This document shows positions 17,644-64,000 of a stretch of 64,000 nucleotides of DNA, piece after piece. Every line of letters begins with the position of its first letter. Positions within the stretch are counted from its first letter, which is position 1. The position numbers and the translations under genes were made by a program. The DNA comes from Verrucomicrobiia bacterium. GTDB lineage: Bacteria; Verrucomicrobiota; Verrucomicrobiia; Limisphaerales; UBA1319. The notes beneath the pieces are model-generated. The model did not search any database. It was not told the DNA's origin and saw only the letters and a list, made by a program, of their open reading frames with translations. The stretch lies in assembly GCA_963664225.1 (NCBI GenBank), contig OY760937.1:4192001-4256000 (forward strand). Direction: 5' to 3'.

Positions 17644-17689
17644 GTCACCAGTACTGGTGACTGGTGGGGACACGGAATTCGGGTACTCT
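17644..17689 (+). promoter_or_regulatory. Palindromic operator plus -10 box of repeated ncRNA, copy 1
   Basis: GTCACCAGTACTGGTGAC at 17644-17661, 22 nt spacer, TACTCT at 17684-17689. Confidence 0.7.
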
Positions 17690-17694: not shown

Positions 17695-17870
17695 CATAAC
17701 TGATCGGTGCAGTTATGCAGAGTTTGTTTGCCGTGTGTGTTTTTAGGGCGTATGTCTGCAGCGCCCGCACTGATCGACGATTTTAGATAACTTAGCGGTT
17801 ATCAATGTGTTAAAGTAAGTTCTCATTACTTTATTTCCGTAAAAAGGCCGGGTTTACACCCGGCCTTTTT
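17695..17870 (+). ncRNA. Candidate structured small RNA, copy 1 (family not recognised)
   Basis: Near-identical to two other copies; four hairpins plus terminator 17841-17870; no conserved ORF. Confidence 0.7.
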
Positions 17871-17907
17871 GTTTTCTCCCACGGTATGGAATCATTAACC
17901 CATCCGT

Positions 17908-34461: not shown

Positions 34462-34465
34462 TGTT

Positions 34466-38500: not shown

Positions 38501-38632
38501 AAACCGCTCGCCATCGCGGTGATTGGGGCATTGTGCATTTCCGTGTTGCTCTCGCTCATCGCAACCCCGGTTGTTTATCTGCTGTTGACGGACAAGAGCG
38601 AAAAAACCGACGGTGCGGGTAATCAAAAGTAA
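35537..38632 (+). CDS. RND efflux permease (AcrB/CusA-like)
   Basis: IGLVIDDAIVVVE, VAKNGILMLDF, RLRPVLMTS; 1031 aa. Confidence 0.95.
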   Translation: MTSPLSTSHWAIRHAKAISFIAFILCMAGIYAALKMPSSVFPQTNFPRVVILADNGVMPGDEMMAAITRPIEESMKDIPGAVTIRSATGRGSAEINVFFSWNTDMVQAELFVLGRLAQIRSVLPSTAQTTVWRLTFSAFPIIGVSLTSPSRDVMALWEEARYNLKPRFLRIPGVARVDLVGGRTPEYHVIADPVRLQAAGLGLSGITDALAKNNLFSPAGMHEENYTLYLAVVDGRVHNIEEIENLTVGAINGRPVQIRDVARVERGPQPVFNVVTSEGVPAVLLNIRSQPDGSTLDIATNLRKELAQLHQDLPPDMKLAFFYDQSQLVRASVGSVWESILFGLILSIVILYLFLKNWTTTLVAIVVIPITVLITLVAMHLSGLSFNLMTLGGIAAAIGLVIDDAIVVVEAIYAKIATGRPRLEAIQEAVGEIIRPLIGSTLTPVVVFLPLAFLVGIAGVFFRALALTMVVSLLTSLALAVTLTPSLASWLMRGREKLVHGHAPKDGETGPILRLAIRVYEVCVRKALRHAWITLTACFALMALGVFLYTHLESDFLPEMDEGGFVLDYVAPWGTSLAETDRQLLQAEEMLKATPEIESYSRRTGARLALAIAEPNTGDFLVKLKPQRKRSTAEVISELRRKFNTVLPGIEWEFPGILSDLIGDLTWSPKPIEVKLFSTDTEFLKTKAPQIEEELKKIKGVVDTTDGLIMTGPTLSLRVRHAEAARLGFTVDDIAAAVNTAMLGRTSSSVLEGDRLVDIRVTLEPTWLGRMAALRELPLRTPVGAVVQLSQVADIVEEPGQMEMHREDLRQNISVTARLEGRDLGSAMKEIQEKLGKDPSLPPGTIEFGGLYEQQRESFRNLLTVLAMAILLVFTVLLIEFGSYREPIAIVFGSVLALLGSILALWLTGTTLNIVSFLGATIGVGIVAKNGILMLDFVDRLRAEGASLEDALVRSGHRRLRPVLMTSMAAGLGMLPLAYGLGTGADMLKPLAIAVIGALCISVLLSLIATPVVYLLLTDKSEKTDGAGNQK

Positions 38633-38742
38633 GTTGGAGCGCAGTCGGAGGTTGGTATGATATCGCGCAGTTGCCGCTGGCAGATGGGATTATTCACTTT
38701 ACGGCTTGCTTTCGGTTTTCCATGCAGCATTACTTATTCAAT

Positions 38743-45101: not shown

Positions 45102-45304
45102 GGCCCCAATTCATCATAAAACGCGCTCGAAATAAACTTTATTCCATTCTTTGTCCGAGTCGCAGGCTAAAGAAATGCAAAGAGATGCCGATGAAATCAG
45201 TGAACTCGCGAAACCACATCTTGAAATGTTGTGGAATTATCTAAAGATATGCCGGATTGATTGTTGAAAGTCAGCACGAAGCAAAACATGGCCGGAATTC
45301 GTTC

Positions 45305-48300
45305 ATGAGAGCCGCAGATCACCCGTACCTCGTGGTGCTCTGGGTTTGGTGTGCCTTCATAGCCGCATGCCTTGGGCAACAGACCGATGCCAGCACCAAT
45401 AGCCTGCCTACTCTGACCACTGTCCGACAGGTGCGCGAATTAAGCGCCAAAGAGGCCAGTCGGGGTTATCCCGTCCGGATTCAAGGGGTGATCACTTGTT
45501 CCGAAGACGCATGGTTGCTCTGGTTTCTCCAGGATGAGGCTGGAGACAACATCTATCTTTCCAATCCCCAGTCTCCAACTCCCCTTAATAGAGGCCAGGC
45601 AATCGAAGTGGAGGGCCAGACAAGTGAAGGGAAATTCTCAAATATTATCGTTAATCCCAGGACAAAGCCGATTAATAAAAGCCTGATTCCCCGGTTTACT
45701 CATCCCAATTACGAGCAACTCGATTCAGGCCGGGAAGATGGCAACTTGGTTCAAATTGAAGGTCGCATTCGATCTTTAACGATGATGAAAAATTGCGCAA
45801 ACCTGTCCATATGGATGGGTTCAAACGTGGTTCAATGCGCCCTGATACACACCCCCTCCAGCAATCTTGATCATCTTCTCGATGCACAAGTTCGCGTGAC
45901 TGCCATCTGCGCCGTGTATTCTTCAAACCGAAAAATGACCGGCTTTCGATTGTTCATTCCCGCATTCGAGCAAATCGTCGTGGTCAATGCGTCCCGGGAG
46001 GATCCTTGGGCCACGCCCATCACGCACTTCGCCGCTTTGGCCAGGATGAATGCCTCGGAATCGGGCCGCCGTATTCATGTCGTGGGCCGCGTCATGGATC
46101 GACAACGCGATGTTTCCGTGACTCTCCAGGACGATACAGGCACGACACTCTTGAACACTCCGCAATTCATGGACGCACAAAATGGCGACGTCCTGGAAGC
46201 GCTCGGCTTTCCCGTGCAAGGCAATGAAGGCATGATCCTTCAAGACATTCAGTGTCGTCCCGTAAAATCCACCAACGGGGTAATGGTCAAACTCCCCAAC
46301 GCAACTCTTCCCAATCCCAAACCTCCGCTGCTGACGCGCATCGATCAGATTCGACGATTGCCGCCGGAGGAATATCACCGCAGTTATCCTGTGCAAATCG
46401 AAGGCGTGATAACCGTCTGCGATCCCATCTGGAAACTCTTATTCATTGAGGACGATTCAGGCGGCATATACGTGTATGAGAGCATTCCGCAACCGGAATT
46501 GAAAGCCGGACAGAAGGTTCGTGTCAAAGGCTTCACAGCGCCAGGTATGTTTTCCCCGATCGTTTCAGATCCGGGCATCGAAATACTCGGACCAGGAGAG
46601 TGGCCAGTCGCCCGAACCATCACTTACGCGCAAGCCATCACGGGGCATGAGGACGCGCAATGGACTGAGATCATCGGTGTTGTCCATCAAGTCCGTCATG
46701 AAAACGGCCACACGGAGATCATCCTCACATCGCAAGGCGAACACTTCAGGGCGTTGATTCTGAATCCAGACGGAACAAACCTGCCCACCCATCTGATCGA
46801 CGCCAGAGTGGCAATCGTCGGTGTCTGCGCCACAATATTTAACGATAACAAGCAAATTGTCGGCATCATGTTCCATCTGCCTGATGTCGGCCATATCCGC
46901 ATTCTCGATGCCGCCCCTGAGAACCCTTTCGCCGGACCCGTGCAACCGATCAACCGGTTGATGCGTTTCAATCCAGGCAACGGACCCGAACAACGAATTC
47001 ATGTCCAAGGCATTGTCACCCTGCGCCTGAATCAGGATTCGATCTATGTCCAGGATGAAACCGATGGAATTCTCGTCACAGGAATGGATAAAACGGACGT
47101 GCGAGTGGGGGACAAGGTGGACGCGGTCGGCTTTGTTTCTCTGGGCCAATATCAGCCGCGGATGGACGAGTCGCTGATCCGCAAGATTGGCCCGGGCACA
47201 ATCCCCAAGGCGGTCGATTTGGATTTTAACCAGGCCTTGAAAGGGGATTACGATGGGCGGCGTGTGACCATCGATGGCAGCCTGCTGCTGTCCCAGGCTG
47301 GCGGAACATTATTGTCCCTCGACAACAACGGACATCTATTCGAAGTCCGAATGATCGGGGAAAAAAGCGGACGCGCGGCTGCGGACCTTCTTCCGCAGAG
47401 CACCCTGCAAATCACCGGCGTCTGCAATATTCTGGCCAACGAATTCCGCGAACCCACCGGCGTCTGCATCCTGGCGGATTCCACAGAAGGCATCGTCCTA
47501 TTGGAGCGGCCGCCTTGGTGGACCAACCGGCACATGCTCGAAGTAACCGCATCGCTCATTGTGGCGATACTGGCCACCACGGGATGGGTGATGCTGCTGA
47601 GGCGGCGCGTCGCCCGTCAAACCGACCAGATCCGTCTGCATTACGAGAAAGCCGCCGTCCTGGAGCGTCGATTCCGCGCCTTTGTGGAAACCGCCAACGA
47701 TGCGATCATCATGACCGACGCAAAAACAGGTTTGGTCCTGAATATAAACCACAAAGCCGAACTTCTGCTTGGCCTTCCTGCCGACGAAGTTGTGGGGAAA
47801 CCCTGCTTGATCTGCCATCCGCCGGGGAAGGCGGAGCATTATGAACAGTTGCTGGAGCGTCTGAAAACCCCCGGCAATCTGGTCACTTCCGCCGAACTTT
47901 ATTCCTTCAGCGACAAACGGTCGATCCCGGTCGAAGTCAGCGCCACAACCATCGAGCATCAAGGCCAGACGATCATCCAGGGCATCTACCGGGACATGAG
48001 CGAACGACTGCGCATGGAATCGGAATTGCGCCACGCCCAGAAAATGCAGTCCGTTGGCCAGTTGGCAGCCGGCATTGCCCACGATTTCAACAACCTGCTG
48101 ACGGTCATCCAGGGCCATTCCAGCCTGCTTCTGGCTCAGAATAACCTGGATTCCAATGCGATGGAATCCGCAAATGAAATCAAGGATGCGACATGCCGGG
48201 CCACCGATTTGACCCGTCAACTCCTGGTTTTCAGCCGCAAACAAATGCTTCAGCCCCAGCCGGTGAATTTAAACGCCATCATCGACGGAATGGCAAAAAT

Positions 48301-48880
48301 GTTCCGCCGCATGCTGGGGGAGAATATCCAACTCCATTGCGTTTGCAGCCCCGCTTCTCCCCGCGTGTTCGCCGATCCGGGCATGATGGAGCAGGTCTTC
48401 ATGAATCTGGTCGTAAACGCCCGGGACGCCATGCCCATGCCCAAAGGCGGCGAGTTGACCATCACCACCGACCAGGTTGAAATTGGCCCGGCTCAATGCA
48501 AAGACCGTCCCGAAGCCCGCATCGGGCAATTTGCTCATATCACTTTTGCGGACAATGGCTGCGGTATGGATGCCGCCACATTAACAAGGATTTTCGAGCC
48601 GTTTTTTACCACCAAGGAAGTGGGCAAGGGCACCGGTCTGGGCCTCGCCACGGTTTATGGCATCGTCAACCAGCATAACGGCTGGATCGAAGTGCAGAGT
48701 CAGCCGGACCAGGGAACAACGTTCCAAATCTTTATTCCGCTTATCGATAAAAATTTATCCTCCGATAAACAGGCCCTCAAACCCATGAATCAAGGCCAGT
48801 CGATCTCCAATCTTGGCGGCGTCTCCGACTCGGGCCGCGCGCAATCGTTTCGGCAGCAATGCGCCGGCAACGTTGCTTGA
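45305..48880 (+). CDS. PAS sensor histidine kinase with repeated extracytoplasmic domains
   Basis: [12 protein letters not shown]-box, [22 protein letters not shown] after PPWW; start uncertain. Confidence 0.9.
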
Positions 48881-50484: not shown

Positions 50485-51111
50485 TCAAGTTGCGGTGTCA
50501 TCTTCGATCTCTGATGTCCAGTTTCCAGACCGCAAATACGGCTTGAGCCGTAACTTCATGGTTTCGCGCGCACGGTGAATCAGCGATTTGGTGGCGGAGA
50601 GCGAAGTGCCCATCACCTCGCCGATATCCTCATACGCCATGTCTTTCTCGCGAAACAAAAGCAACGCGGTTCGCTGGGATTCGGGCAGGTCCGCCAAAGC
50701 CTCTTCGATTTTGGCCAGCAACTCCCCTTGTAACAACGCTTCGGCCGGACCTTCGATTCGGGGATCCGGTATCTGGCGAACCGGGGCGTCTTCCTCGCCA
50801 CCAATCTGGGCATCCAGGGAATCGGCGGGATGCCGGGATCGGCGGCGCAGCTCATTGAGGCAGAGATTTCTGGCAATTGTAAAAAGCCAGGTGGAAAATT
50901 TGGCTGAAGCGGCATAGCGGCCCGCCGATTTGTAGGCCTGCACAAAGACGTTTTGCGCAAGATCCTCGGCTTCTGTGGGATCCGAAATGGTCCGGGCCAC
51001 CAGGTTGATGACAGGCTGCTTGTATTTTTCAACCAGGGTCTCAAATGCGGTGATATCTCCGGTTTTCACCCGGAGCATCAGCTCGGCATCTAAATCTGGT
51101 GTGGCGGACAT
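50485..51111 (-). CDS. ECF RNA polymerase sigma factor
   Basis: AEDLAQNVF, FSTWLFTIARNLCLN, YEDIGEVMG..KSLIHRAR. Confidence 0.92.
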   Translation of the reverse strand: MSATPDLDAELMLRVKTGDITAFETLVEKYKQPVINLVARTISDPTEAEDLAQNVFVQAYKSAGRYAASAKFSTWLFTIARNLCLNELRRRSRHPADSLDAQIGGEEDAPVRQIPDPRIEGPAEALLQGELLAKIEEALADLPESQRTALLLFREKDMAYEDIGEVMGTSLSATKSLIHRARETMKLRLKPYLRSGNWTSEIEDDTAT

Positions 51112-51183
51112 GTGGAGTCCCAGCTTATCAAACACCACTCAATCAATAAGTTGCGCGCGACATCCAACCCTTGAATCGAATTC

Positions 51184-52713
51184 TCAAGGCGTCGCTGCCA
51201 TGACCCGATCACGGTCGATGCCATAGCGCTGCATCACACGCCGGGTCGCCGCCTCCATTTCACCGGCGTCGAGCACGAGTCTGTGAACGGCTTCGCCGGG
51301 AGCGAATTCGACTTCGTGGAAGCCGTTGATCGGTTTGGTCAGGGCATCGGCCAGTTGGCGCAAATTGCTGATGGGCTGGCCATTGACTTTGTCGAGCACC
51401 ATGAACCGGTAATCCTGATAGCCCATGTTGTAGGCATCGGGCAGAACGATGGACAGGAGCACCCGGCTGGGATAGGTGGCGCTGGGCTTGTCCTGGTCAT
51501 AATAGGTCAGACGGAACGGGGCTTTGCGCCGCCATTCCGCTCCCCAGTTATGCAAGTAGGGTCCGGTCAAGGGCTGGAACGTCAGTCCTCCCGCCATGAG
51601 GTATTCCGGGGCCTGATCGAAGACCTGCTCGGCAATCAATTCCCGCGAATAATTGACCTTGGGCAGGGGATAGGTGATGTCTTTGTATTGACCGTTGCGC
51701 CAGACCTTGAGTGACAAATTATCACCCGCCCATTTGTTCCGCGTGGACAGGTTTTCCAGCGATAAGTGGCCATAGGCGGGATCGCTGTAGTCTCCATCGG
51801 TATCGATGGGGAAGTCCCCGATTTGAACCAGGACATCGTGGGTTTGAAGCAGCGCGTTTGTGCCGTCAATGCCCACGAATTCGTTCAGGATCACCCCCTT
51901 GGGTTCGCCCGGGAGTTTCAGGTAATTCAGGGTGGCGGGATTCTCGGCTTTTTGCCACACGAAATCGAAAAAGCCCAGGCCCGCGTAGTTTCCTTTTCCT
52001 TTTTGCGCGCCATCGACGATGAACCGGATGAAAGGGGCGGGGATGACCTGCGTGGTCTTGGAATCCTGAGAGCAGGTCAGACCGTGGAGCATGCCCTCGC
52101 CGATCACCGCCTCGGACCAGCCGGCGCCGTCGATCTCGGAGTCGAGCGAGGCCTGGAAATACTCCAGAAAGCTCAGTTTGGAGCGTTGGACGGAGAGACG
52201 GCTGATTTCTGCCTTGCGGATTTCGCGGTTGCCATTGCGCCAGCGCACCACTTGAACGCTGCCTTCTGCGGGGAACCGGTCCGAAAGCAGGGCGGGCTTC
52301 AAACCATTCCAGAATCCGGCATCCTCGGTCGTGATCAAGGCAAGGTTGGCGTGGTAATCGATCCATTGCAAACGCGCGGTGACCCACAATCCGCGACCCC
52401 CTTTTTGCAGGCGGATGAGCGTCGCATCGTTCAGATATTCGGCCGTGGTGAGAATTTGCCGGGGCGCGATGACCACACCGCTTTTCTCGTTGTTTTCCGT
52501 GCGCACAGCCCACGGCTGAAAATAATCGTATTGCTTGTGAGAAACGTCGATCGTCACCAGCGAGTTTTCCCAAAACGAGGCCGCTCCCGGTCCTGCCGCG
52601 CGGGCCGCGGTGGTATCGGCGCCTGAAACGCCATTTGCGACCAGGCAGAACGTCAGCAGACAAACCGTTCGAAGCGAAGCGGCGGTTTGAATTAAGGTGT
52701 GATGGGCTTTCAT
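51184..52713 (-). CDS. Deg/HtrA-like PDZ protein, probably catalytically inactive
   Basis: Same layout as its neighbour but TTAEY/ANLA/GWSEA replace TNAHV/CDL/GNSGG; ATGA overlap. Confidence 0.75.
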   Translation of the reverse strand: MKAHHTLIQTAASLRTVCLLTFCLVANGVSGADTTAARAAGPGAASFWENSLVTIDVSHKQYDYFQPWAVRTENNEKSGVVIAPRQILTTAEYLNDATLIRLQKGGRGLWVTARLQWIDYHANLALITTEDAGFWNGLKPALLSDRFPAEGSVQVVRWRNGNREIRKAEISRLSVQRSKLSFLEYFQASLDSEIDGAGWSEAVIGEGMLHGLTCSQDSKTTQVIPAPFIRFIVDGAQKGKGNYAGLGFFDFVWQKAENPATLNYLKLPGEPKGVILNEFVGIDGTNALLQTHDVLVQIGDFPIDTDGDYSDPAYGHLSLENLSTRNKWAGDNLSLKVWRNGQYKDITYPLPKVNYSRELIAEQVFDQAPEYLMAGGLTFQPLTGPYLHNWGAEWRRKAPFRLTYYDQDKPSATYPSRVLLSIVLPDAYNMGYQDYRFMVLDKVNGQPISNLRQLADALTKPINGFHEVEFAPGEAVHRLVLDAGEMEAATRRVMQRYGIDRDRVMAATP

Positions 52714-54158
52714 AGTCTGCGGTCCTTGGCAATGCCGTAGGTTTTCAAAATGGACTCGTTGGCCTCTTTGGACTCGGCCCGGTTCAGGCATTCCAGGAGG
52801 CGGAAGGAAACAAACTCGATCACGTCCTGGGCGCCGTTGTCTTTTTCAAACGCGGCAATGACGTCTTCGAGCTTGTTGATGCGCACGCCGTTGATCTTAT
52901 CCACCAGGGCGTGTCCGCGCAGTTCGAGGTTGGCGTTCACAGGATCGGCCAGCACCGCCGCCAGAACGACCGGTTCTGTGCGCGCTGTATCAGGAAACTC
53001 CTGTTTGCGATAATAAAGCTCGTAAATGAGTTCGCTGCCGCTGCCCTCGGGGAAATTTGGGGCGGAGGCGCGCAGATAATCCCGGCTGAGCGGCGTGAAA
53101 ACCAGCCCCGCATGCACATAATAGCGGGGCAGTTCATACAAATTGCCTTCGGCCCGATCATCCGTGGGGACTTTGGCGGTCAGGTTGACGGTCTGAGCGG
53201 CTCCCGCGCGCCAGATTTTCAAAGGCACACTTTCACCCGCCTGCACCTCGCTGAAGGCGCCCGCGACATGAATACGATTGCCTTGATACATGATCGATCC
53301 ATCACTGCCCACGGCATACGGGCCCACTTGCATGAGGACATCGTCTTCCTGCAAAACATCCTTCGCGGGTGAGAACGGGGTGATCTTATCGATGCGCGCG
53401 CCCACGTTATCGTCGGGGATCTTCAGATATTTGCGAAAGGCCGGATTTTGCAGCGGCGACACGCGAACGCCCGCCATCGGGAATCCTTCGTAACGGCCAT
53501 TTTCAATGTCCTTGAGAAAGTGCTGGATCACAGGCGGAGGGATGAAAAAACCGGTGTTCTCCAGGCCGGACATGCCTTGAAAAGATACGCCCGCCACTTT
53601 GTCATCCTGAATCACGGGACCGCCACTGTTGCCCGGGTTGATGGCAGCGTCGGTCTGGACGGCCAGAAAGTTTCGGTTCCCAATATGCACGTAGGTTTGC
53701 AGCTCGATGCGGGAAACCACACCGCGCGTATAGGAGATTTGTTCGCCGCCTGCGGGGTAACCATACGTGACTACCGCAGAACGCACTTTGGCCAGTTCGC
53801 CAATATCCAAAGGCTCGAGTCCGTCAAAAAAAGTTTCGTCCTCGACTTCGAGAATAGACAGGTCGCAGTCATGTCCGATGAACGCCACGCGCGCCAGGTA
53901 GGGCCGGGGATCCTGATATTTATGCACCAGGACTTGTTTGGCCCAACTGACGACGTGGGCGTTGGTCATGATGCGTTTGCCGCGAATCACAAAGCCCGAT
54001 CCGGAGGCTTTGCGCACCGGCTCGAACCGCCACGGGGCGTCCCAGACCGGTTGCTGGCTGAAGGTGGTGATGCGGATGACCGATTTCTCAGGCTCGGCAG
54101 CCGGACTGGCGGCGGCGATGGCCAGCAGGAATAAAATGGAGGCGATGAATGGTCTCAC
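52710..54158 (-). CDS. Deg/HtrA trypsin-like serine protease with PDZ domains
   Basis: TNAHVV, DCDLS, DAAINPGNSGGP; signal peptide. Confidence 0.92.
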   Translation of the reverse strand: MRPFIASILFLLAIAAASPAAEPEKSVIRITTFSQQPVWDAPWRFEPVRKASGSGFVIRGKRIMTNAHVVSWAKQVLVHKYQDPRPYLARVAFIGHDCDLSILEVEDETFFDGLEPLDIGELAKVRSAVVTYGYPAGGEQISYTRGVVSRIELQTYVHIGNRNFLAVQTDAAINPGNSGGPVIQDDKVAGVSFQGMSGLENTGFFIPPPVIQHFLKDIENGRYEGFPMAGVRVSPLQNPAFRKYLKIPDDNVGARIDKITPFSPAKDVLQEDDVLMQVGPYAVGSDGSIMYQGNRIHVAGAFSEVQAGESVPLKIWRAGAAQTVNLTAKVPTDDRAEGNLYELPRYYVHAGLVFTPLSRDYLRASAPNFPEGSGSELIYELYYRKQEFPDTARTEPVVLAAVLADPVNANLELRGHALVDKINGVRINKLEDVIAAFEKDNGAQDVIEFVSFRLLECLNRAESKEANESILKTYGIAKDRRL

Positions 54159-54367
54159 AAAGCAAAAATGGTAATACGGGCCGTTCGCGTCAAGTCTCGA
54201 TATGATCGGTAAATCCCAAAAATCCGCAGATGGGAATCAAGCCGCGAGTGAATAGGCCCTAGCGCAATAATGCTCAGAAGGCTGGTCGAACAGGGCAGGG
54301 GGATGAAAGCCATAGGCTGTTGACCACGTTTTGCACGCCTTGGCGTGGATTTATTGCGATTCCAGTG

Positions 54368-54547
54368 AAAAAAAAGAAGGCCGGGGATAAATCCGGCCTT
54401 CTTACGGAAATAAAGTAATGAGAACTTACTTTAACACATTGATAACCGCTAAGTTATCTAAAATCGTCTATCAGTGCGGGTGCTGCAGACAGACACCCAA
54501 AAACACACGGTAAAACAAACTCTGCATAACTGCACCGATCAGTTATG
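54368..54547 (-). ncRNA. Candidate structured small RNA, copy 2
   Basis: Reverse complement of copy 1 with the same hairpins and a U-tailed terminator. Confidence 0.7.
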
Positions 54548-54552
54548 GGATC

Positions 54553-54598
54553 AGGATACCCGAATTCTGAGTCCCCACCAGTCACCAGTACTGGTGAC
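54553..54598 (-). promoter_or_regulatory. Operator plus -10 box, copy 2
   Basis: Palindrome at 54581-54598, 22 nt spacer, TATCCT (54558-54553). Confidence 0.7.
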
Positions 54599-54629
54599 AC
54601 GCCGTCCCCAGTGTAACCATCCTGGTAAT

Positions 54630-55256
54630 TTACTGCTTCAGGAACTTGGCGACGGCTTCGGTGCGGGTGCGGACCTGCAGTTTCTCGTAAATGCGGCGGA
54701 TGTAGGTGTGAACGGTTTCGTAGCTGATGCCGAGTTTCTCGGCGATTTCCTTGTAGAGAAAACCCTTCGCCAGGCAGTCCAGGACTTCCTGTTCGCGCGT
54801 GGACAGGTTCTCGGAGGGCTGCGGCGAGGAGCCGATTCGCTGGAAGGATTGCACGACCTTGCGGGCGATGTGTGTGGTCATGGGGGATCCGCCTTTTTGA
54901 ACTTCCTTGATTCCCGCAAGCAATTCCGGGGTTGTCGTTCGCTTGAGCAGATAGCCCGAGGCCCCGGCGGTCAGGGCGTTGAAGATGTTCTCGGTATCTT
55001 CATACACGGTGAGCATGAGGATCTGGATTTGCGGGGCCACCTGTTTCAACTTCTTCACGCATTCCACGCCGTTCATGCCCGGGAGGTTGATGTCCATGAG
55101 GACGACATCGGGTTTCACACGCGGCAGCTCATCGAGCGCGGCCTCGGCATTGGCATACTGGTGGGTGCATTGGAAGCCCTCGGAGCGATCGATCACCTTG
55201 GCGAGGGTGGTGCGCACCAGATTGCTATCTTCCACAATGGCAACTTGAATTGGCAT
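54630..55256 (-). CDS. NarL/LuxR-family DNA-binding response regulator
   Basis: REC (VED, DVVLMDINLPGMNG, GYLLK) plus LuxR HTH LSTREQEVL...YKEIAEKLGIS. Confidence 0.95.
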   Translation of the reverse strand: MPIQVAIVEDSNLVRTTLAKVIDRSEGFQCTHQYANAEAALDELPRVKPDVVLMDINLPGMNGVECVKKLKQVAPQIQILMLTVYEDTENIFNALTAGASGYLLKRTTTPELLAGIKEVQKGGSPMTTHIARKVVQSFQRIGSSPQPSENLSTREQEVLDCLAKGFLYKEIAEKLGISYETVHTYIRRIYEKLQVRTRTEAVAKFLKQ

Positions 55257-55391
55257 TTCCTATCGACAACCCTGACAGAAAAAAAGACCCCGTGCCAGCC
55301 CAATCGTTCAGCCGTGCGCACGACAAAAATCTTTTGATGCCCACCGCCCTCCGCTCTTTGCCCTCTGCCTTTTTCAATCTTCCGTGCGTAC

Positions 55392-55572
55392 AAAAAAAAA
55401 GAAGGCCGGGGATAAATCCGGCCTTTTTACGGAAATAAAGTAATGAGAACTTACTTTAACACATCGATAACCACCAAGTTATCTAAAATCGTCGATCAGT
55501 GCGGGTGCTGCAGACATACACCCTAAAATCACACGGTAAACAAACTCTGCATAACTGCACCGATCAGTTATG
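55392..55572 (-). ncRNA. Candidate structured small RNA, copy 3
   Basis: Third copy with stems preserved and P3 loop changed. Confidence 0.7.
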
Positions 55573-55577
55573 GGATC

Positions 55578-55623
55578 AAGATAGCGGTTTCTGGATTCCC
55601 CACCAGTCACCAGTACTGGTGAC
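55578..55623 (-). promoter_or_regulatory. Operator plus -10 box, copy 3
   Basis: Palindrome at 55606-55623, 22 nt diverged spacer, TATCTT (55583-55578). Confidence 0.7.
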
Positions 55624-55731
55624 ACGGTGTGCCCGGTGTCCCCAATGCCTGCAATGACCCGTCGAAAATAAATGTCCCGGGCGTTGGTTTTGGGCTTGAG
55701 TAAATCCGTTCGGGCCGTCACAACGTTTCTT

Positions 55732-57138
55732 ATGAACCGTCGAAAGTTTTTACAGCGCACCGCGCTTGCCGCAGGCGGATTGTCCGTTCTGCCGGAATTT
55801 TACATCTCAAACCTTCACGCCGCAGACAAAGGGAAGCTGAACATCGTTCAGATCGGCTGCGGTGGACGCGCCATGACCCATCTGGATGCCACAGTGGACG
55901 AAAACCTGGTGGCCATTGTGGATGTCTCGGAAAAGCGTTTTCCGGTGATCCAGAAATGGCTGACCAATAAGAACAAGGACGCCGCAAAGCTGCAGACGTT
56001 CACGGACTACCGGCGGATGTTCGACAAGATGGGCAAGAATGTCGATGCGGTGTTCATTGCCACGCCCAATCATCATCACGCGCTGCCCGCCATGACGGCC
56101 ATGCAGCTGAACAAGGCCGTTTATTGCGAGAAGCCGGTCTGCCACGATATTGGCGAGGCGCGGCAACTGCGTGAGATGGCCACCCATTCCAAGGCGGCCA
56201 CGCAGATGGGCAACCAGGGGCATTGCGACGAGGGTTACCGCCGGTTGTGCGAATACATCTGGTCCGGCGCCATCGGCGCGGTCACGGAAACCCATAGCTG
56301 GACCAATCGCGCCAACGGCGGCGTGGGACCGCGTCCCCCCGTGGAACCAGTGCCCGAGGGAATGCATTGGGACGAATACATTGGGCCCGCTCCCTATCGT
56401 GATTTCCATTCCGACATTCATCCCCACGAATGGCACGGCTGGTATGATTTCGGGAATGGATCCATCGGCAACATGGGTTGCCATGTCCTGGACGGCGTCT
56501 TTTGGGCGCTGAAAATCGAGCATCCCACCTCCATTGTGGCCGAGGCCATCCGCGGCGGCAGCAACGAACGCTACCCCACCGGCAGCCGCATCCGCTGGGA
56601 TGTTCCCGCCCGTGAAGGCATGCCTGCGTTGAAAGTGTTTTGGTACGAGGGCTTGAACCAGACGACCAAGGCCGAACCGTCCGGCGCATTGCGCATTGCC
56701 GTGGGCGAGGCCCGGAATCTGCCTCCGCTGTTGGGCGAGCTGCGAAAGAAGTATCCCGATGAAGAGATCGACAGCGCGGACAGCGGCACTCTTTACGTGG
56801 GCGAAAAAGGCACGATCTATACCGAGACCTATGGCGGCTACATGCACATCGTTCCCTGGGAAAAGATGAAGGCCACACCCGCGCCGGAAAAGACCCTGCC
56901 ACGCTTCAAAGGCGGCATTTTCCGGAATTTCCTGGAGGCCTGCCGCACGGGCAGCAGGGATACGGCCGTGCCCTTCGAATATGGCACGCGGCTGACCGAG
57001 TTCGCCGTTCTGGGCAACCTGGCCCAACACGCTGGCGAAGGCAACAAGGTGGAATGGGATGGCCCGAACATGAAGGTCAAAAACATTCCCGAGCTCAACG
57101 CCTGGATCAAGCGCGAGCCGCGCAAAGGCTGGGCGTGA
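55732..57138 (+). CDS. Tat-exported Gfo/Idh/MocA oxidoreductase
   Basis: NRRKFL Tat motif; IGCGGR; ATPNHHH; YCEKP. Confidence 0.92.
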   Translation: MNRRKFLQRTALAAGGLSVLPEFYISNLHAADKGKLNIVQIGCGGRAMTHLDATVDENLVAIVDVSEKRFPVIQKWLTNKNKDAAKLQTFTDYRRMFDKMGKNVDAVFIATPNHHHALPAMTAMQLNKAVYCEKPVCHDIGEARQLREMATHSKAATQMGNQGHCDEGYRRLCEYIWSGAIGAVTETHSWTNRANGGVGPRPPVEPVPEGMHWDEYIGPAPYRDFHSDIHPHEWHGWYDFGNGSIGNMGCHVLDGVFWALKIEHPTSIVAEAIRGGSNERYPTGSRIRWDVPAREGMPALKVFWYEGLNQTTKAEPSGALRIAVGEARNLPPLLGELRKKYPDEEIDSADSGTLYVGEKGTIYTETYGGYMHIVPWEKMKATPAPEKTLPRFKGGIFRNFLEACRTGSRDTAVPFEYGTRLTEFAVLGNLAQHAGEGNKVEWDGPNMKVKNIPELNAWIKREPRKGWA

Positions 57139-58408
57139 GGAAGAGCGGACGGTCCTTGCGCTTCGGATAAATTGAAGAAGAGGCGCGAGCGCGAGTTGGG
57201 AGTGGCGGCTATTTTCGAAGGGAGGGGACAATTTGTCCCCTTCTTGGAATTTGATTTCGATGAAGCGGGGGGCGGCAGAAATTTCAATGCCGAAGTACAG
57301 CATTGGCTTTATCCGACTCATTTATCCCTTCTCCACCCGCAACAAACTCACATGCGAATGGGAAATTTGTTAGTAATTAAACAGATTGGAACAGTTAACG
57401 TTAATCCATGATCACCGAAATCCATCTCCAGAATTTCCGCGGATTCAAGGACCACGTTGTTCCTCTCAAGCCTTTTACGGTGATTGTCGGGCGTAACAAC
57501 GCTGGAAAATCGACTATCACTGAGGCGCTCCGTTTAATTTCTATTGTCGTAAGTCGTTTCAAAGGAGATTTGACGAGCCTTCCTCGAAAGTGGGAATTTC
57601 CTCGGAATAGGCGCAGCATAAATCAATTTAAGAATCTGGAGATCAATTTACAGAGTGTTTTTCATAACTACAGCGACCCTCCTGCAATTGTCCGAGCCAA
57701 GTTTGCATCTGGCGAAATCATTGAGGTGGCGATTACGAACGATGGGATTATTGCGCGCAGGACTCGAGTGAATAGCGTGCGGGAGGATTGTTGTCCTAGA
57801 TTGTCGAGAGTAAGTATTTTGCCGCAAGTCGGACCCGTTGCAAGGGAAGAACGGTTGCTCACTGAAGACTATGTGCGTGGAGCGTTATCATCAACCTTGG
57901 CGCCGATGCACTTTCGGAATCAACTTTACCTGCTAAAAGAGCAGTTTCAGACTTTTAAAGACTCAGCTGAGCAGACTTGGCCTGGACTGCGAATCCGTGA
58001 CTTGGAAACGATCGAACAGCTTCCTGACCCCACTCTGCTGTCCTTATTAGTAGAAGATCAACACTTTACGGCCGAGATCGCATGGATGGGACACGGACTT
58101 CAGATGTGGCTTCAGATGATTTGGTTTCTGAGTCGCGCAATTGACCATGAAACGGTGATTCTTGACGAACCAGATGTATACATGCACGCAGATTTGCAGC
58201 GGCGATTTGTGCGGTTTGTGCGCAGCCGTCACCAGCAAGTAATCATTGCAACGCATTCATCGGAAATAATGGCCGAGGTTCTTCCTGATGATATTCTTGT
58301 TGTTGATCGCGCCAGGGAGAAATCCGACTTCGCATCTTCACTGCCAGCTGTTCAAAAGTATCCGTCAGGCGAAGTGGCTATAGGCAATGGCCGGGCTGAA
58401 GTGGTTAA

Positions 58409-58756
58409 ATGGGGGGCGTGAAGCACCGAACTGCATCCTCAAATCGATTTCCGCAAACCACATGTGAACAACGTGCCCAATGGATCCTTCGCTATCACCA
58501 GAGTGGATTGACGCGGCGCGCCTTTGCTTCTGAGTATGGCATCGGATTGTCCACATTGGGGAGGTGGCTCAGAGACCCGGTGCCCACCGCCGTGGAACCA
58601 CCCGCACTGCCACGCCTGCAGGAAGTCCCTCTGGCTTCCCTGCTGGGAAATTCGCCTTGGGCTGCGGAAATCACCTTTGCCGACGGGACCGCGGTGCGCC
58701 TGACTGGGGACCTGGCCGACCGACTTTTGCAACCCTGGCTTGGGGCGCGTTCATGA
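58409..58756 (+). CDS. tnpA: IS66 accessory protein TnpA (HTH)
   Basis: YHQSGLTRRAFASEYGIGLSTLGRW; first IS66 ORF; start uncertain. Confidence 0.8.
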   Translation: MGGVKHRTASSNRFPQTTCEQRAQWILRYHQSGLTRRAFASEYGIGLSTLGRWLRDPVPTAVEPPALPRLQEVPLASLLGNSPWAAEITFADGTAVRLTGDLADRLLQPWLGARS

Positions 58757-59088
58757 TCACGCCCACTGCCGCCACACGTATCTTCGTTGCCCTGGCTCCG
58801 ATGGACTTGCGCCAGTCCTTTAACGGGCTGTGTGCCTGGGTCCAGGAGTCCTTGCGTCAGGATCCTCTCTCGGGCCATCTTTTTTTGTTCACCAACAAAC
58901 ACCGGAACCGTCTCAAGGCCCTTTACTGGGACGGCAGCGGACTTTGGGTCAGCACAAAACGTTTGGAGCGGGGTCGATTTACCTGGCCACAAGGGGAGGG
59001 ATTGCAGGCAAACTTGCGCGCCGAGGAACTCAGCGCGTTAGTCAACGGATTGGAGATCCGCGCACGCAAAGACTGGCGGCGAAACTGA
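58753..59088 (+). CDS. tnpB: IS66 accessory protein TnpB
   Basis: DLRQSFNGL, LFLFTNK, LYWDGSGLW, KRLERGRFTWP. Confidence 0.92.
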   Translation: MITPTAATRIFVALAPMDLRQSFNGLCAWVQESLRQDPLSGHLFLFTNKHRNRLKALYWDGSGLWVSTKRLERGRFTWPQGEGLQANLRAEELSALVNGLEIRARKDWRRN

Positions 59089-59154
59089 AAGATTCTTAAA
59101 ATAAATTGCGTATAACTATTGACATAATAATTTATATTGTTATGAGTAATAACA

Positions 59155-60804
59155 ATGAATCCAGCACCGTCACTGACTCCCGAACTTCTGGCTCAGATGC
59201 CCGAGTCCTTCCGCGGTGTCGTCCTCCAGGCCGTTGGTCAGCTCGAAAGTCAGGTGCAGTCTCTGTCCAGCGAGAACAAGCTCCTGCGCCAGAAAATCGA
59301 TGCCCTGATCCGCCAGTATTTTGGTTCACCCAAAAACGAGACCCTCGATCCCAACCAACTGCTTCTGCTCTTGAGCGGACTGGCAGGAACCTCCGCCCCG
59401 GTTGCGGCCACCCCGGTCCAATCCGCCCCGGCTTCCAAAGCCACGACAAATCGCAAACCGGCCCGTTCGGGGATTCCGGAGAATCTGCCCATTGAAAAGG
59501 TGGTGCTGCTGCCCGACGAGGTGAAAGCCAACCCGGACCAGTTCCGCCAGATTGACCAGCTGATCACACGGGAATTGGACTATGAGCCGGGCCGGTTTTT
59601 CTGGAGGGAAATTACGCGGCCAAAGTTTGTGCGTCGGACTGCGGCGGCCCCGGCCCCCGAAATTTCGCTCACGACACCGGAAGGCAAGCTGCCGCCGCTG
59701 GCGTTGGCCCTGGCAATGACCTCGTTGCCCGAGGTCAGGGAGGTTCTGATCGCGGAGCTGCCCAACCGGCTGATCGAAAAAGGACTGCCGGGAGTGGGCT
59801 TGCTGGTCCACTTGATTTTGAGCCGCTTTGAAGATCATCTGCCCTTTTACCGGCTGGAAAAGATCTTCCGGGAACGACACAGGGTGCCCATCGCCCGGCA
59901 GACAATGGTCGATTGGACCGAACGCCTGGCCGATTGGTTCCTGCCGGTCTATCGCGAGATGGCCGCTGGACTGCGCGCCGCCAAATATCTTCAAGCCGAC
60001 GAGACCCCCATTCAATATCTGGACCGGGAAGTGCCCGGGCGCAGTTGCACGGGATACTTCTGGGTGTATGGCCAGCCAGGCGGAGATGTGATTTTCGAGT
60101 GGAAGACCAGCCGGGGCCGGGAAGGACCCAAGGCGTTTCTGGAGACTTTCAAGGGCAAGCTCCAATGCGATGGCTATGGCGTCTATCAATCTTTGGCTAG
60201 GGAACGGGAGGATTGGACCCTGATCGGTTGCTGGGCCCATTGCCGGCGATATTTCCATAAGGCCAAGGATCATGACCGGCACGCGGCCTGGTTTTTGAAG
60301 CAAATCAGCCTGCTCTATGAGATTGAACGACGTCTGAGCCAGCAGAAGGCCGGGCCCAACCTGCGGGAAGCCGTGCGGGCTGCGGAGGCCAAGCCCGTGC
60401 TCGCGCGCATTGGAAGGGCGCTGGAGAAAATCGAGCCCAAGATTTTGCCCCAAAGCCTTCTGGGCAAGGCCATCCATTATGCCAGGGGTTTGTGGACAGA
60501 GTTGAATCAATATGCCCAGTTCGGGGAGGTGGCGATTGATAATAATCCGATCGAGAACATAATTCGGCCCACGGCCATTGGGAAAAAGAACTTCCTGTTC
60601 ATTGGCCATCCCGAGGCGGGCTGGCGAAGCGCCGTGATCTACTCGATCCTGGGCAGTTGTCATCGCCATAAAATCAATCCGGCCCTCTATTTGCGTGATG
60701 TGCTCAGCCGCCTCCCCAACATGCAGCAAAGTGAGGTGCCAACCATTACCCCAAAAGCCTGGGCCAAGGCACATCCCGAAGCGCTCGCACAGTTGCCCAA
60801 GTAA
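59155..60804 (+). CDS. tnpC: IS66 DDE transposase TnpC
   Basis: HLPFYR, ADETP, LQCDGY, CWAHCRR, IDNNPIENIIRP. Confidence 0.95.
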   Translation: MNPAPSLTPELLAQMPESFRGVVLQAVGQLESQVQSLSSENKLLRQKIDALIRQYFGSPKNETLDPNQLLLLLSGLAGTSAPVAATPVQSAPASKATTNRKPARSGIPENLPIEKVVLLPDEVKANPDQFRQIDQLITRELDYEPGRFFWREITRPKFVRRTAAAPAPEISLTTPEGKLPPLALALAMTSLPEVREVLIAELPNRLIEKGLPGVGLLVHLILSRFEDHLPFYRLEKIFRERHRVPIARQTMVDWTERLADWFLPVYREMAAGLRAAKYLQADETPIQYLDREVPGRSCTGYFWVYGQPGGDVIFEWKTSRGREGPKAFLETFKGKLQCDGYGVYQSLAREREDWTLIGCWAHCRRYFHKAKDHDRHAAWFLKQISLLYEIERRLSQQKAGPNLREAVRAAEAKPVLARIGRALEKIEPKILPQSLLGKAIHYARGLWTELNQYAQFGEVAIDNNPIENIIRPTAIGKKNFLFIGHPEAGWRSAVIYSILGSCHRHKINPALYLRDVLSRLPNMQQSEVPTITPKAWAKAHPEALAQLPK

Positions 60805-61819
60805 CCGATGCCTTGTTGCGGGTGACTTCTGAAAGTTGCCATATTCGCCTTTCACGCCGCCAATCTAATCAGGCCAGCCCCACATTGCCTATTGCCACTT
60901 CGCCTGACGGATACGTTCAAAAAGTCCTAAGCGGACTTGGAAGTATACATAATTTGCAGCTTTCGCGCCTTTGGAATGCTCGTCGGTTTCTCATGGTCGA
61001 GGGGGAAGATGTGGGCTTGCTGAAGCAATTCCAAGATACACTCTTCCCAGAAACAACAATTCCTCTTGATACTGTTCCATCGATAACAATTGGAGGTTGG
61101 GGAGGTTGGAATCAAGCGGTGGGTTCAGGATTCCTATTGAAGAACGCTGCCGGCGACGGAATAATAACCTACTGCTTATTCGATTCGGACTACCATCCAT
61201 CGGATGCAATTCAAGCACGCTACACTGAAGCGAAACACCGCGGTATATCTTTGTATATATGGAAGCAAAAGGAACTAGAAAACTACTTGCTTGTGCCGAG
61301 CGCAATACATCGTGCGATATGGGTCCAGCTAGCTGATGGAGCACTTGGGCCGACCGTCGAGATGATTGAAACAAAACTACAGGAAATCGCAGAAAACATG
61401 AAGCAAGATGTGATTGACTGCGTGGCAACAGATATTCAGAACGCGGAAAGGAAGATCTCGGTAGCTACTGCCAATCAAAAAGCGCGTGAAGTCACTGCCA
61501 ATCGATGGCGCACCGCAGAAGAACGTCTCGGCGTTATACCAGGAAAACGGGCTCTATCTCTTATTACGCATTGGGTTCAGGATGAATACAAAGTGACTAT
61601 AAGCGGTATGCGCATTGCTCACCAAATGCTTGCGAGCGAATTGCATTTAGAAATAAAACGTGTCCTCACAGCGATTGAAGAGTGTGAACCTTTTTAGTGG
61701 CGAGAGCGCACCTGCGCGGAACAGGGTCCCACGGATTGCTTTGGATTGGATCTAGAATTCACAGACGGGCGGCGACAGCAACTCCAATCTTTTCGCTGGC
61801 CGATGGATAGTCAGTTTGT

Positions 61820-62270: not shown

Positions 62271-64000
62271 TCACCCCTTCGCGTCCACCGGGGTGGGGGC
62301 GCTGGCGCGGACGAGGGTGCCGCCGGAGGCTCCGGGCTGGATGGAGAATTTGCCGCCGATGGCATCCATCCTCTTGCGCATGCCACTGAGGCCATTGCGG
62401 GTGAGGGCCGCCTTTTCGTCCATGCCGCCCAGGCCGCAGCCGTCGTCCTCGATCTCCATGATGAACATGCCGGACTCCAGGCGCAGGCGCAGGGACACCT
62501 TCGTGGCTTTGGAGTGACGCACCACGTTGGTGATCGATTCCTTGAACGTGAGGAAATAATTATGTCGGTATTCGGGCGGAATGGTTATGGCGGGCAATTG
62601 ATCGGGAACGTCGAGCCGGCAATGAATGCCCGCCACGGAGAGGTAATCCTGGGCGTGTTTGCAGATGTAATTCACCAGGCCCTCCAGTGTGTCGTTCGAG
62701 GGGTTCACGGCCCAGACGATCTCGTCCAGGACGCGCGTGGTTTCGCGGGCGGTTTGTGAAATCTGCCGGGCATGCGCCTCCACTTCGAGCGGATGGTCCT
62801 TGTCGCACTCGGCCAGATCGCCCAGCAGGGCCACTTGAGTGAGATTGGCGCCGAGCTGGTCGTGAAGGTCCTGGGCAATGCGCGAGCGCTCTTTTTCCAG
62901 GGCCTCATGTTGCTTCAGTCGCTCGAGCTGGCGCTGCAATTTTTGGGTGGAGACGTAATGTACGATGCCAATGATGCTGCCGAGCAGGACGACGGTGGCG
63001 CCGCCCAGGAACCACCAGGTGCGCCAGAAGGGCGGGGTGACCTGCAGCATCAGGGAGCTTCCGGTGTCGTTCCAGACGCCGTCCTCGTTGCAGGCGGTGA
63101 CTTGAAAACGGAACTGGCCGGGCGGCAGTTTGCTGTAACGCGCCACATGGCTGTCTCCCGCCTCGGTCCATTCGGTTTCGTGGTTTTCCAGGCGGTATTT
63201 GAAGCGGCTTCTTTCGGGCGCGGTGAGGTTCAGACTGGTGAAATGGATTTCAATGCGTTCCTTCCCGGGGGGAACAATCACGGTTTCGGTTGATCCAGCA
63301 GTCAACCCAGCGTTCAACCCAGCGTTCAACCGGTTGGTGTTTTGGAGTTGGCCGTCGATCAGGACCGATTCGATGACGACGGGCGGGGGATAGGGGTTGG
63401 AGATGAGCTGGGCGGGATTGACCGAGACCAGGCCCTTGGTCGTTGGGAGCCAGACCCTTCCGTCGCGTCCGAGCCAGCCGCCCGGTTGGGAGCCGGTGGT
63501 GCATTCGCGCGTGGGCAGGCCATCCGGCTTCCCATATGTGCGGCAAAAGACAACACCCGAGCCGCCCCGGGCCAGGGCGTCCAGTTCGCGCCGGGCCACC
63601 CTCATGATGCCCGCATTCGAGCCCAGCCACAGAAAGCCGTGGCGATCCTCCACAATGTAGCCTATGCTGTTGCTGGCCAGGCCTTCACGCGTGGTGTAGC
63701 GGGTCCATTTGCCCTTCTCCAGACGGCCCAAACCGCCGCTGGGTCCGCCCACCCAGACGATCCCCTGGGCATCGACGAGCAGGGTGGTGACGTCCTCACT
63801 GGGCAGACCGTCCTTCTTGTGAAACACCGTGAAGTGGTTATCACGCAGGCAGTTCAATCCGCCGCCCACGGTGCCCACCCAGAGATTGCCCTCGGCGTCA
63901 TCGCCAATGGCGCGCACCTCATTCGCCGACAAACCCTCGTTCGTGGTCAGGACTTTCCAAGTCGTTCCATCCCAGCACGCCAGACCGCCCTGCGTGCCAA
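62271..64000 (-). CDS. Sensor histidine kinase (beta-propeller + Y_Y_Y + HisKA_3), 5' truncated
   Basis: DxxGxLWVGT propeller repeats; YRLE...YSKLPPGQFRF; ERSRIAQDLHDQLG; ESITNVVRHS; DDGCG. Confidence 0.92.
   Translation of the reverse strand, partial: GTQGGLACWDGTTWKVLTTNEGLSANEVRAIGDDAEGNLWVGTVGGGLNCLRDNHFTVFHKKDGLPSEDVTTLLVDAQGIVWVGGPSGGLGRLEKGKWTRYTTREGLASNSIGYIVEDRHGFLWLGSNAGIMRVARRELDALARGGSGVVFCRTYGKPDGLPTRECTTGSQPGGWLGRDGRVWLPTTKGLVSVNPAQLISNPYPPPVVIESVLIDGQLQNTNRLNAGLNAGLTAGSTETVIVPPGKERIEIHFTSLNLTAPERSRFKYRLENHETEWTEAGDSHVARYSKLPPGQFRFQVTACNEDGVWNDTGSSLMLQVTPPFWRTWWFLGGATVVLLGSIIGIVHYVSTQKLQRQLERLKQHEALEKERSRIAQDLHDQLGANLTQVALLGDLAECDKDHPLEVEAHARQISQTARETTRVLDEIVWAVNPSNDTLEGLVNYICKHAQDYLSVAGIHCRLDVPDQLPAITIPPEYRHNYFLTFKESITNVVRHSKATKVSLRLRLESGMFIMEIEDDGCGLGGMDEKAALTRNGLSGMRKRMDAIGGKFSIQPGASGGTLVRASAPTPVDAKG

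Follow-up and report, generated by a model that had tools for sequence, protein, structure and literature searches.

A probable kinase, regulator and small-RNA module in Verrucomicrobiota, marked by a palindromic operator downstream of a NarL/FixJ-type regulator gene

Circuits that lead from a two-component system to a small RNA are well known in Proteobacteria, and almost nothing of the kind is on record for Verrucomicrobiota. Here we describe a candidate circuit from a 64,000-nt stretch of contig OY760937.1 of a Verrucomicrobiia bacterium (GCA_963664225.1, positions 4,192,001 to 4,256,000), which we call the window. The region of interest, at 54368-55623 of the window, carries a gene for a NarL/FixJ-type response regulator with a small-RNA gene on either side, and each RNA is preceded by a palindrome that would serve as its operator. 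We consider it probable that these elements form part of a conserved Verrucomicrobiota module, in which a beta-propeller HisKA_3 kinase is combined with the regulator and a small RNA of ~180 nt, and in which the regulator activates the RNA via the palindrome. The sequence anatomy of the element, its conservation and synteny, and covariation in the RNA are directly observed. From these patterns, binding of the phosphorylated regulator to the palindrome, with activation of RNA transcription, appears the most likely mode of action. The RNA family, the operator and the regulator orthogroup are new; a two-component system with a small-RNA output is, in itself, already known.

The window has three exact occurrences of the 18-mer GTCACCAGTACTGGTGAC, and no others appear in its 64 kb when up to 2 mismatches are tolerated. 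Three matches were reached by none of 100 dinucleotide shuffles of the window (mean 0.05). The sequence is a perfect 8-2-8 palindrome with a 7-2-7 core, GTCACCAG-TA-CTGGTGAC, and TGGTGGGGA stands directly 3' of it in all three copies. When the copies are aligned, three zones become apparent: an invariant block, CGTGTCACCAGTACTGGTGACTGGTGGGGA, that holds the palindrome; a spacer of 22 nt that has diverged among the copies; and a near-identical stretch (~185 nt at ~90% identity) that runs from a TAnnnT box to the terminator. By blastn, the duplicated unit measures ~235-249 bp at 89-92% identity, with no similarity outside the unit.

On the minus strand the order is RNA copy 3 (55571-55392), regulator (55256-54630) and RNA copy 2 (54546-54368), just as the initial annotation had it. 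The operator of copy 3 (55606..55623) is an exact match that lies inside the block invariant in the three copies. It is followed downstream by an element that resembles a third half-site, TGGTGGGGAA (55596..55605), recognised by its sequence, and by a candidate -10 box, TATCTT (55578..55583). The operator of copy 2 (54581..54598, minus strand), likewise exact, begins 32 nt after the last base of the regulator stop codon, with TGGTGGGGAC (54571..54580) as its third element and TATCCT (54553..54558) as its -10 box. Copy 1 is on the plus strand, ~37 kb from the regulator gene; its operator (17644..17661) is again exact, the third element is again TGGTGGGGAC (17662..17671), and the box is TACTCT (17684..17689). 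In all three copies the third element was assigned from sequence together with the promoter alignment. Two further claims of the initial annotation hold for every copy: the box begins exactly 22 nt after the palindrome despite the divergence of the spacer, and there is no good -35. A consensus scan found no sigma-70-type promoter with an acceptable -35 before any RNA copy; it gave no match in 54300-55750, and the sole match in 17500-17950 is an unrelated one.

To place the element in a wider context, we took the best 80 among 568 confirmed relatives of the regulator, with each species represented by one genome, and compared these loci with up to 10 kb on either side of the gene (1.28 Mb in total). 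These loci are from Verrucomicrobiota, and their regulators are 72-81% identical to that of the window; the source genome is not included, and the closest relative stands at 81%. Only 4/80 loci have the exact 7-2-7 core, so mismatches had to be allowed for the family to show. With up to 2 mismatches in the 16 palindrome positions, a near-palindrome is present in 33 of the 80 loci, compared to a mean of 0.6 and a maximum of 4 in 20 mononucleotide shuffles of the same 1.28 Mb. The initial annotation had tied its proposal to linkage between regulator and element in related genomes, and such linkage is what we found. Each of the 33 sites is found 17 to 3349 nt past the end of the regulator gene, with the same strand and orientation as the gene; no operator was detected upstream of the regulator, in reverse orientation or elsewhere in the 1.28 Mb.

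An ungapped alignment of the 35 promoters of sufficient length (32 loci and the three window copies) yields the consensus T-GT(C/A)(A/C)CCAG-(A/T)A-CTGGTGAC-T-g-G-c-n-G-G. Sites were selected by palindrome positions 1-18; positions 0, 19-25 and 41-46 and the fixed distance played no part in the choice. Conservation extends to these positions as well: T0 is kept in 34/35 promoters, T19 in 35/35 and G21 in 34/35, and T, A and T occupy positions 41, 42 and 46 in 34/35, which places TAnnnT exactly 22 nt after the palindrome. The spacer between palindrome and -10 box carries little information. The promoter layout seen in the window (palindrome, 22 nt, TAnnnT, no -35) is thus conserved between species.

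Among relatives, the left half-site is variable, appearing as GTCACCAG, GTCCCCAG or GTAACCAG (CA, CC or AA at positions 3-4); the right half-site, CTGGTGAC, is invariant among the aligned promoters. The tandem half-site CTGGTGG that had been reported next to the palindrome is indeed present in the window, but relatives keep it only as T-G-G-(C/T)-N-G-G, with T19, G21, G24 and G25 retained in 29-35 of 35 promoters. This TGG(C/T)NGG element can equally be read as a putative third half-site, (C/G)NGGGGAC, located 10-11 bp after the right half-site, and (C/G)NGGGGAC resembles the reverse complement of GTCCCCAG, the common left half-site. Readings of the GGGGAC element as sigma-54 type or extracytoplasmic function (ECF) type were dropped, as the spacings, judged by eye, are unfit.

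How old is the linkage? In a maximum-likelihood tree of the regulator (n=81), operator-linked loci fall in both midpoint halves (7/18 and 27/63 rows), and the operator label changes 15 times, compared to a mean of 26.3 in shuffles, with 0/500 shuffles as low. Spread over both halves with few changes of label, the linkage is old, and often lost or relocated. Searches of the remaining 47 loci for diverged operators or RNAs, with profiles of the promoter (E up to 10) and of the RNA and with a covariance model, gave no credible match. Truncated sequence concerns few loci: only 4/80 have less than 500 nt past the regulator gene, and the operator is still seen in 2 of those 4.

The transcript predicted from each window promoter is ~180 nt long and ends at the T-run of a terminator. 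Copy 1 (17696..17875, plus strand; predicted start A17696) scores 121.1 bits with our covariance model (E 6.8e-28), copy 2 (54368..54546, minus strand, ~179 nt; predicted start A54546) scores 107.6 bits (E 1.9e-24), and copy 3 (55392..55571, minus strand; predicted start A55571) scores 110.5 bits (E 3.3e-25). The intrinsic terminators of copies 2 and 3 were detected by scan; the hairpin and T-run of copy 1 are visible in the sequence and fall below the pass mark. Copy 1 stands between two minus-strand genes, for an MFS transporter (16138-17532) and a DUF4097 protein (17908-18969), and is therefore not the leader of a downstream gene. Among loci, the genes 3' of the RNA differ from one to the next.

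A profile built from 28 sequences found, by nhmmer, RNA homologues in 28/80 loci in addition to the three window copies. Each is preceded by the operator, at ~53 nt in full-length matches and proportionally more in partial ones; no homologue without an operator was found among the 28 loci and three window copies. The covariance model recovers the same 31 matches, all with E 2.5e-10 or lower. Beyond these it gives a weak match to a miniature in locus L049, reverse-strand terminator matches and nothing else credible. At gathering score, Rfam 15 has no family for the RNA, the only match in the whole window being a tRNA, and relaxing the threshold to E up to 10 across 54300-55700 gave no credible match.

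The predicted consensus structure has a long-range helix and two internal hairpins, and the RNA holds two conserved motifs, CCGUGUGUG and GUUCUCAUUG. Standard pairs fill 96.8% of the cells of this structure, and 13/28 pairs have changed on both sides. The observed percentage paired, double-change counts and covariation score were reached by 0/500 shuffles; the number of further pair types, by contrast, is no different from shuffles (206 of 500). Control structures slid along the alignment pair only 27-53% of cells. The long-range helix joins the 5' end to the segment after an invariant GCGCCGC. When partners are swapped between sequences, its mean energy changes from -13.0 to -9.8 kcal/mol, and 0/1000 permutations are as low as the native combination.

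Of the two motifs, GUUCUCAUUG is unpaired and immediately 5' of the terminator, and CCGUGUGUG, which the consensus fold pairs in part, lies open in the loop of a hairpin in several of the longer variants. GTGTG occurs in 27/28 RNA sequences and GTTCTCA, just 5' of the terminator, in 26/28. Reading frames in the homologues range from 1 to 44 codons, with no conserved start or frame. Given its own putative promoter, its intrinsic terminator and its covarying pairs, which are generic marks of a trans-acting small RNA, the element reads as an independent non-coding transcript. A role as CsrA/RsmA sponge was considered and rejected, as each RNA holds 0-3 GGA and 0-1 ANGGA (28/28 sequences).

Some variants of the RNA merit description. 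Miniature forms of 66-96 nt (L049:6682-6793, L066:6150-6288, L067:7694-7835) keep only GUGUGUG, GUUCUCA and the terminator, which suggests that these motifs are the functional core. An invariant self-complementary run, GCGGCGCCGC, occupies alignment columns 76-86 in the core of the RNA (GCAGCGCCCGC or GCAGCACCCGC in the window copies), and most relatives have a second self-complementary run, AAGCGCUU, near the 3' motif. Alternative pairing or dimerisation through GCGGCGCCGC and AAGCGCUU is possible.

Five operator loci lack the standard RNA: L023, where the contig ends, L049, which has the 66-nt miniature, and L008, L010 and L030. Rfam gave no match in L008, L010, L030 or L049. In L010 and L030 (L010:10635-10800, L030:10653-10820), the usual operator is followed by a different, conserved RNA of ~100 nt; L030 has the box TAGGTT at 22 nt. 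This RNA forms a long hairpin, GCGGGCUUYGGA...UCCRAAGCCCGC, in which a C-G to U-A change is compensatory, and the hairpin loop holds ACACACGG, complementary to CCGUGUGU of the usual RNA. A more speculative reading, which we consider doubtful, makes the ~100-nt RNA a naturally occurring sponge, or counter-RNA, for the system. Its identification as signal recognition particle RNA was dropped for want of an Rfam match. At L008 (L008:12496-17336), operator and a TATTCT box lie ~160 nt upstream of a 1544-aa open reading frame (ORF) whose product would have a hydrophobic stretch towards its N-terminus (near residues 40-60) and a Laminin_G_3 domain. This is the only case seen where the operator may drive a protein-coding gene.

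The regulator itself (54630..55256, minus strand, 208 aa) has a Response_reg domain (PF00072, 2.5e-27) and a GerE output domain (PF00196, residues 150-203, 3.5e-18). Receiver pocket, output domain and HisKA_3 partner all place it in the NarL/FixJ family. Pocket residues E9, D10, D55, T83 and K105 are invariant in 25/25 aligned orthologues, as are the whole helix-turn-helix and the helix T181-V-H-T-Y-I-R-R-I-Y190. The invariance of the recognition helix parallels that of the CTGGTGAC half-site. The nearest solved structures are VraR (E 5e-30, residues 3-203), DevR and NarL, and DesR is also a full-length match. At the level of NCBIfam equivalogs, the regulator misses the cut-offs for NarL (124.8 bits vs 250), NarP (126.6 vs 343), UvrY/SirA/GacA (125.6 vs 280) and RcsB (67.3 vs 235). 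Homologues number in the thousands. The best 120 are 76-100% identical and nearly all 208 aa long, and the named ones among them are from Verrucomicrobiota or Pedosphaera. Four of the 80 loci carry other labels (L007 Haliangiales, L047 Omnitrophota, L053 Acidoferrum, L055 Bifidobacteriaceae). Their regulators are 73-79% identical to Verrucomicrobiota ones and all four have the kinase orthologue; these labels are likely binning or labelling errors.

The probable cognate sensor kinase is encoded at 62271..64000 on the minus strand (ORF 62271-63998). The window holds its C-terminal 575 aa, with Reg_prop, Y_Y_Y, HisKA_3 and HATPase_c domains (Pfam) and one membrane helix (residues 327-345); the 5' part of the gene lies beyond the window. 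Among relatives, a ~1000-aa kinase ORF is found upstream of the regulator on the same strand in 63/80 loci, within 200 nt in 56, and the window fragment is 54-66% identical to it over ~568 aa. Orthology and synteny thus give good support to the proposal of the initial annotation that the HisKA_3 kinase may be the partner of the regulator. Of the 17 loci without an upstream kinase, 5 have less than 1.2 kb of upstream sequence. Full-length kinases begin with a hydrophobic segment (2/3 examples), followed by ~700 aa of Reg_prop repeats and Y_Y_Y, and end with one membrane helix (TWWF...), HisKA_3 and HATPase_c.

Given a kinase orthologue directly upstream of the regulator in 63/80 loci, the ancestral order would be kinase, regulator, small RNA. 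The window departs from this common order by the ~7 kb between kinase and regulator and by its extra RNA copies (three in all). The flanking of the regulator by RNA copies, as initially described, is therefore accurate here, but flanking on both sides is peculiar to this genome; relatives mostly have a single-copy arrangement of kinase, regulator and RNA. No kinase gene adjoins the regulator in the window, and tblastn found no remnant of a regulator gene beside the kinase. Upstream of RNA copy 3 lie, in order, a divergent Gfo/Idh/MocA oxidoreductase gene, an AAA_15 ATPase gene, an IS66-family element, two small ORFs of no assigned family and the kinase gene. The IS66 element (58355..60917) has TnpB_IS66 and DDE_Tnp_IS66 ORFs and 68-nt inverted repeats that are 82% identical (58355-58422 and 60851-60917), and its two ends extend into neighbouring frames, namely the 3' end of the AAA_15 ORF (57408-58421) and the beginning of ORF 60813-61697. 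We propose that, in the source genome, kinase and regulator genes have been moved apart by an insertion that included IS66.

How might the module work? An extracytoplasmic signal would lead the kinase to phosphorylate the regulator at D55. A regulator dimer would then bind the 18-bp palindrome, T-GT(C/A)(A/C)CCAG-NN-CTGGTGAC, at about -52 to -35 of the RNA promoter, and a further protomer may occupy the adjacent GGGGAC-type half-site. The palindrome centre would be at ~-43.5, assuming a start 7 nt after the -10 box. At this promoter, with its good -10 and no -35, the bound regulator would recruit RNA polymerase in the manner of a class II activator, whose site is typically centred near -41.5. 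The small RNA, in turn, most likely base-pairs with mRNAs through its two conserved motifs. Both the position of the transcription start and this mode of base pairing are predictions that we infer from sequence. Two consequences could follow from the arrangement in the source genome. Triplication of the unit of promoter plus RNA should raise output. Further, with copy 3 placed upstream of a regulator gene which has lost its operon partner, read-through of the copy 3 terminator could, speculatively, feed back on the regulator.

This picture agrees with what is reported for NarL. NarL output domains bind 7-2-7 inverted heptamers as dimers, and NarL activates napF from a 7-2-7 site at -40 to -49 and yeaR from one at -38 to -47 (PMC4549865). 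The inverted heptamers, the 2-bp spacer and a centre at about -43 to -45 are shared with the palindrome described here, where binding and activation would be by analogy. The initial annotation had put the centre at about -43, as in activated promoters, and with the start as predicted this agrees with napF and yeaR. The NarL system differs in its half-site, which is GTCACCAG/CTGGTGAC in the present case, in its product, here a small RNA, and in the sensor domain of NarX/NarQ, to which that of the present kinase is unrelated. The NarL heptamer consensus is TACYYMT.

Several points weigh against the proposed module. Among orthologous loci, 47/80 have neither operator nor RNA within 10 kb. The sites were picked by their likeness to the window palindrome, which makes the conservation of positions 1-18 partly circular, and the shuffle and permutation controls correct only partly for relatedness among sequences. 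The -43 position rests on a predicted transcription start, and the third half-site would reach ~-25, where bound protein could hinder RNA polymerase. In the 64-kb window, the only stretches of 8-10 nt complementary to CCGUGUGUGA and GUUCUCAUUG are antisense to the RNA genes themselves, apart from two isolated 8-mers away from gene starts. Finally, adjacency is no proof that this regulator, and not another DNA-binding protein, reads the palindrome.

The last point leads to the alternative that a different, unlinked transcription factor binds the palindrome and that the RNA gene merely occupies a permissive slot 3' of a two-component operon. Adjacency is the sole link between regulator and site, 47 of the 80 loci are without a site within 10 kb, one window copy is 37 kb from the regulator, and many protein families bind 18-bp palindromes. 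Counter to this, all 33 sites in 1.28 Mb are just 3' of the regulator gene, the linkage is spread over the whole regulator tree, recognition helix and right half-site are both invariant, and the size and 7-2-7 geometry would suit GerE-type dimers. We regard an unlinked factor as rather unlikely. A second possibility accepts the regulator as the binding protein and reverses its effect: it could repress, or it could activate at first and turn repressor once occupancy is high, via the third half-site in the -35 to -25 region. The conserved third element between palindrome and -10 box is suggestive here, and NarL is described as repressing frdA from a 7-2-7 site near the start site (PMC4549865). 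Yet no copy has a -35, and a weak -35 region is kept across species, so an unassisted promoter should be poor; further, the palindrome centre agrees with those of the NarL-activated napF and yeaR. On balance, repression seems to us unlikely.

Two other explanations concern the nature of the unit. The element might code for a small protein, a peptide of MQKRSVPCV type, alone or beside an RNA function, as many homologues have an ATG/GTG-CAG... frame of 10-39 codons. The start codon, however, is unconserved (GTG, or none, in several), the frame varies from 1 to 44 codons, and in close relatives a single T/C change is enough to turn codon 11 into a stop. Indels between copies have lengths that are not divisible by three, the best-conserved parts lie outside or across the frames, and paired columns covary, all of which renders a coding role very improbable. 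The three ~235-bp copies, with their sharp boundaries and 89-92% identity and with an IS66 element nearby, might instead belong to a small mobile or repetitive element with no regulatory role. Against this, 28-33 species have just one copy per locus in the same syntenic place, the unit lacks terminal inverted repeats at its boundaries, and it contains a promoter, a structured and covarying RNA and a terminator. We therefore give this idea almost no credence. Activation of the small RNA by the linked regulator remains our preferred explanation.

Among known systems, the closest in circuit logic is GacS/GacA with RsmX/Y/Z (BarA/UvrY with CsrB/C) of Gammaproteobacteria, in which a NarL/FixJ-type regulator, a palindromic upstream site and several redundant small-RNA genes come together (PMC2375449). 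The small-RNA promoters are the only sites seen for GacA, as they are for this module. The resemblance does not extend to the components: unlike in Gac/Rsm, the regulator here misses the UvrY/GacA cut-off, the RNA is without GGA repeats, the box sequence differs, RNA and regulator genes are physically linked, and the kinase is of the propeller/HisKA_3 type. GacS is an unorthodox hybrid kinase.

Other parallels are partial. In Vibrio, the response regulator LuxO activates several paralogous small RNAs, Qrr1-5, and one of the RNA genes adjoins the regulator, as here; LuxO is an NtrC-type sigma-54 activator, and the Qrr RNAs, of ~100 nt, are unrelated in sequence to the RNA described here. RcsB, a NarL/FixJ-type regulator of Enterobacteria, activates the promoter of the small RNA RprA, where its box adjoins the -35 region. 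The GcvB gene stands beside that of its LysR-type activator GcvA, and GcvB has a G/U-rich seed, which CCGUGUGUG resembles. The RNA of this module has no Rfam sequence or structure match to either RprA or GcvB. As for the protein components, VraR/LiaR-type regulators offer the best structure match, the same two-domain layout and a HisKA_3 partner kinase. VraS/LiaS are unlike the kinase here in being small intramembrane-sensing kinases, and the LiaS model matches only its catalytic core (42 bits vs 450). We know of no small-RNA output for VraR/LiaR-type systems.

A search of the literature on small RNAs and two-component regulators of Verrucomicrobia, Verrucomicrobiota and Pedosphaera, and on kinases with Y_Y_Y and HisKA_3, found no description of the module, subscription journals and supplementary files being outside the search. 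A table in a 2022 review gives 8 annotated small RNAs for the whole Planctomycetes-Verrucomicrobia-Chlamydiae group (PMC9029176). With sensor, regulator, operator, promoter and RNA all nameable from sequence and recurring in at least 33 species, the module yields precise and testable predictions. The RNA family is a candidate for Rfam. The module may also serve as an entry point to the signal sensed by the large propeller kinase, for which its neighbours (PagL, DegP-like proteases, HSP20) hint at the cell envelope.

These neighbours follow a pattern of their own. A gene of the PagL family (lipid A 3-O-deacylase) comes right after the regulator in 12/80 loci, ~45-390 nt past it (L003, L004, L006, L016, L018, L021, L024, L032, L034, L036, L058 and L068). 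It is mutually exclusive with operator and RNA, which are present in 0/12 PagL loci, as is PagL in 0/33 operator loci; no operator-like site was found between regulator and pagL in the 12 loci. Both the window and L073 encode DegP-like proteases 3' of the RNA. In 7 loci, every one of which has the RNA, the kinase gene comes after an HSP20 gene (L038, L047, L064, L069, L070, L074 and L076), and in 7 loci, all without the RNA, a NIPSNAP-domain gene takes the same place. We read PagL, the DegP-like proteases and HSP20 as hints of an envelope or proteostasis role, and no more. It is tempting to go further and see the small RNA as the principal, perhaps only, direct output of a phylum-wide envelope-sensing two-component system, an idea that we hold to be doubtful. 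If it were true, with RNA or PagL in the slot after the regulator and never both, the RNA would exert post-transcriptional control over remodelling of the outer membrane or of lipid A.

Downstream of RNA copy 2, the window encodes two DegP-like proteases (trypsin/PDZ_3), an ECF sigma factor and a DUF3106 protein (50485-54158), which could be an envelope-stress cluster. Elsewhere in the window, three large BspA-type leucine-rich-repeat proteins (1042, 911 and 656 aa) are encoded around genes for an outer-membrane factor and an AcrB-type efflux pump (26850-40641), and a 1207-aa PAS/HisKA kinase gene lies at 45257-48880. The tRNA gene that gave the sole Rfam match in the window is at 21740-21814 and scores 64.6 bits.

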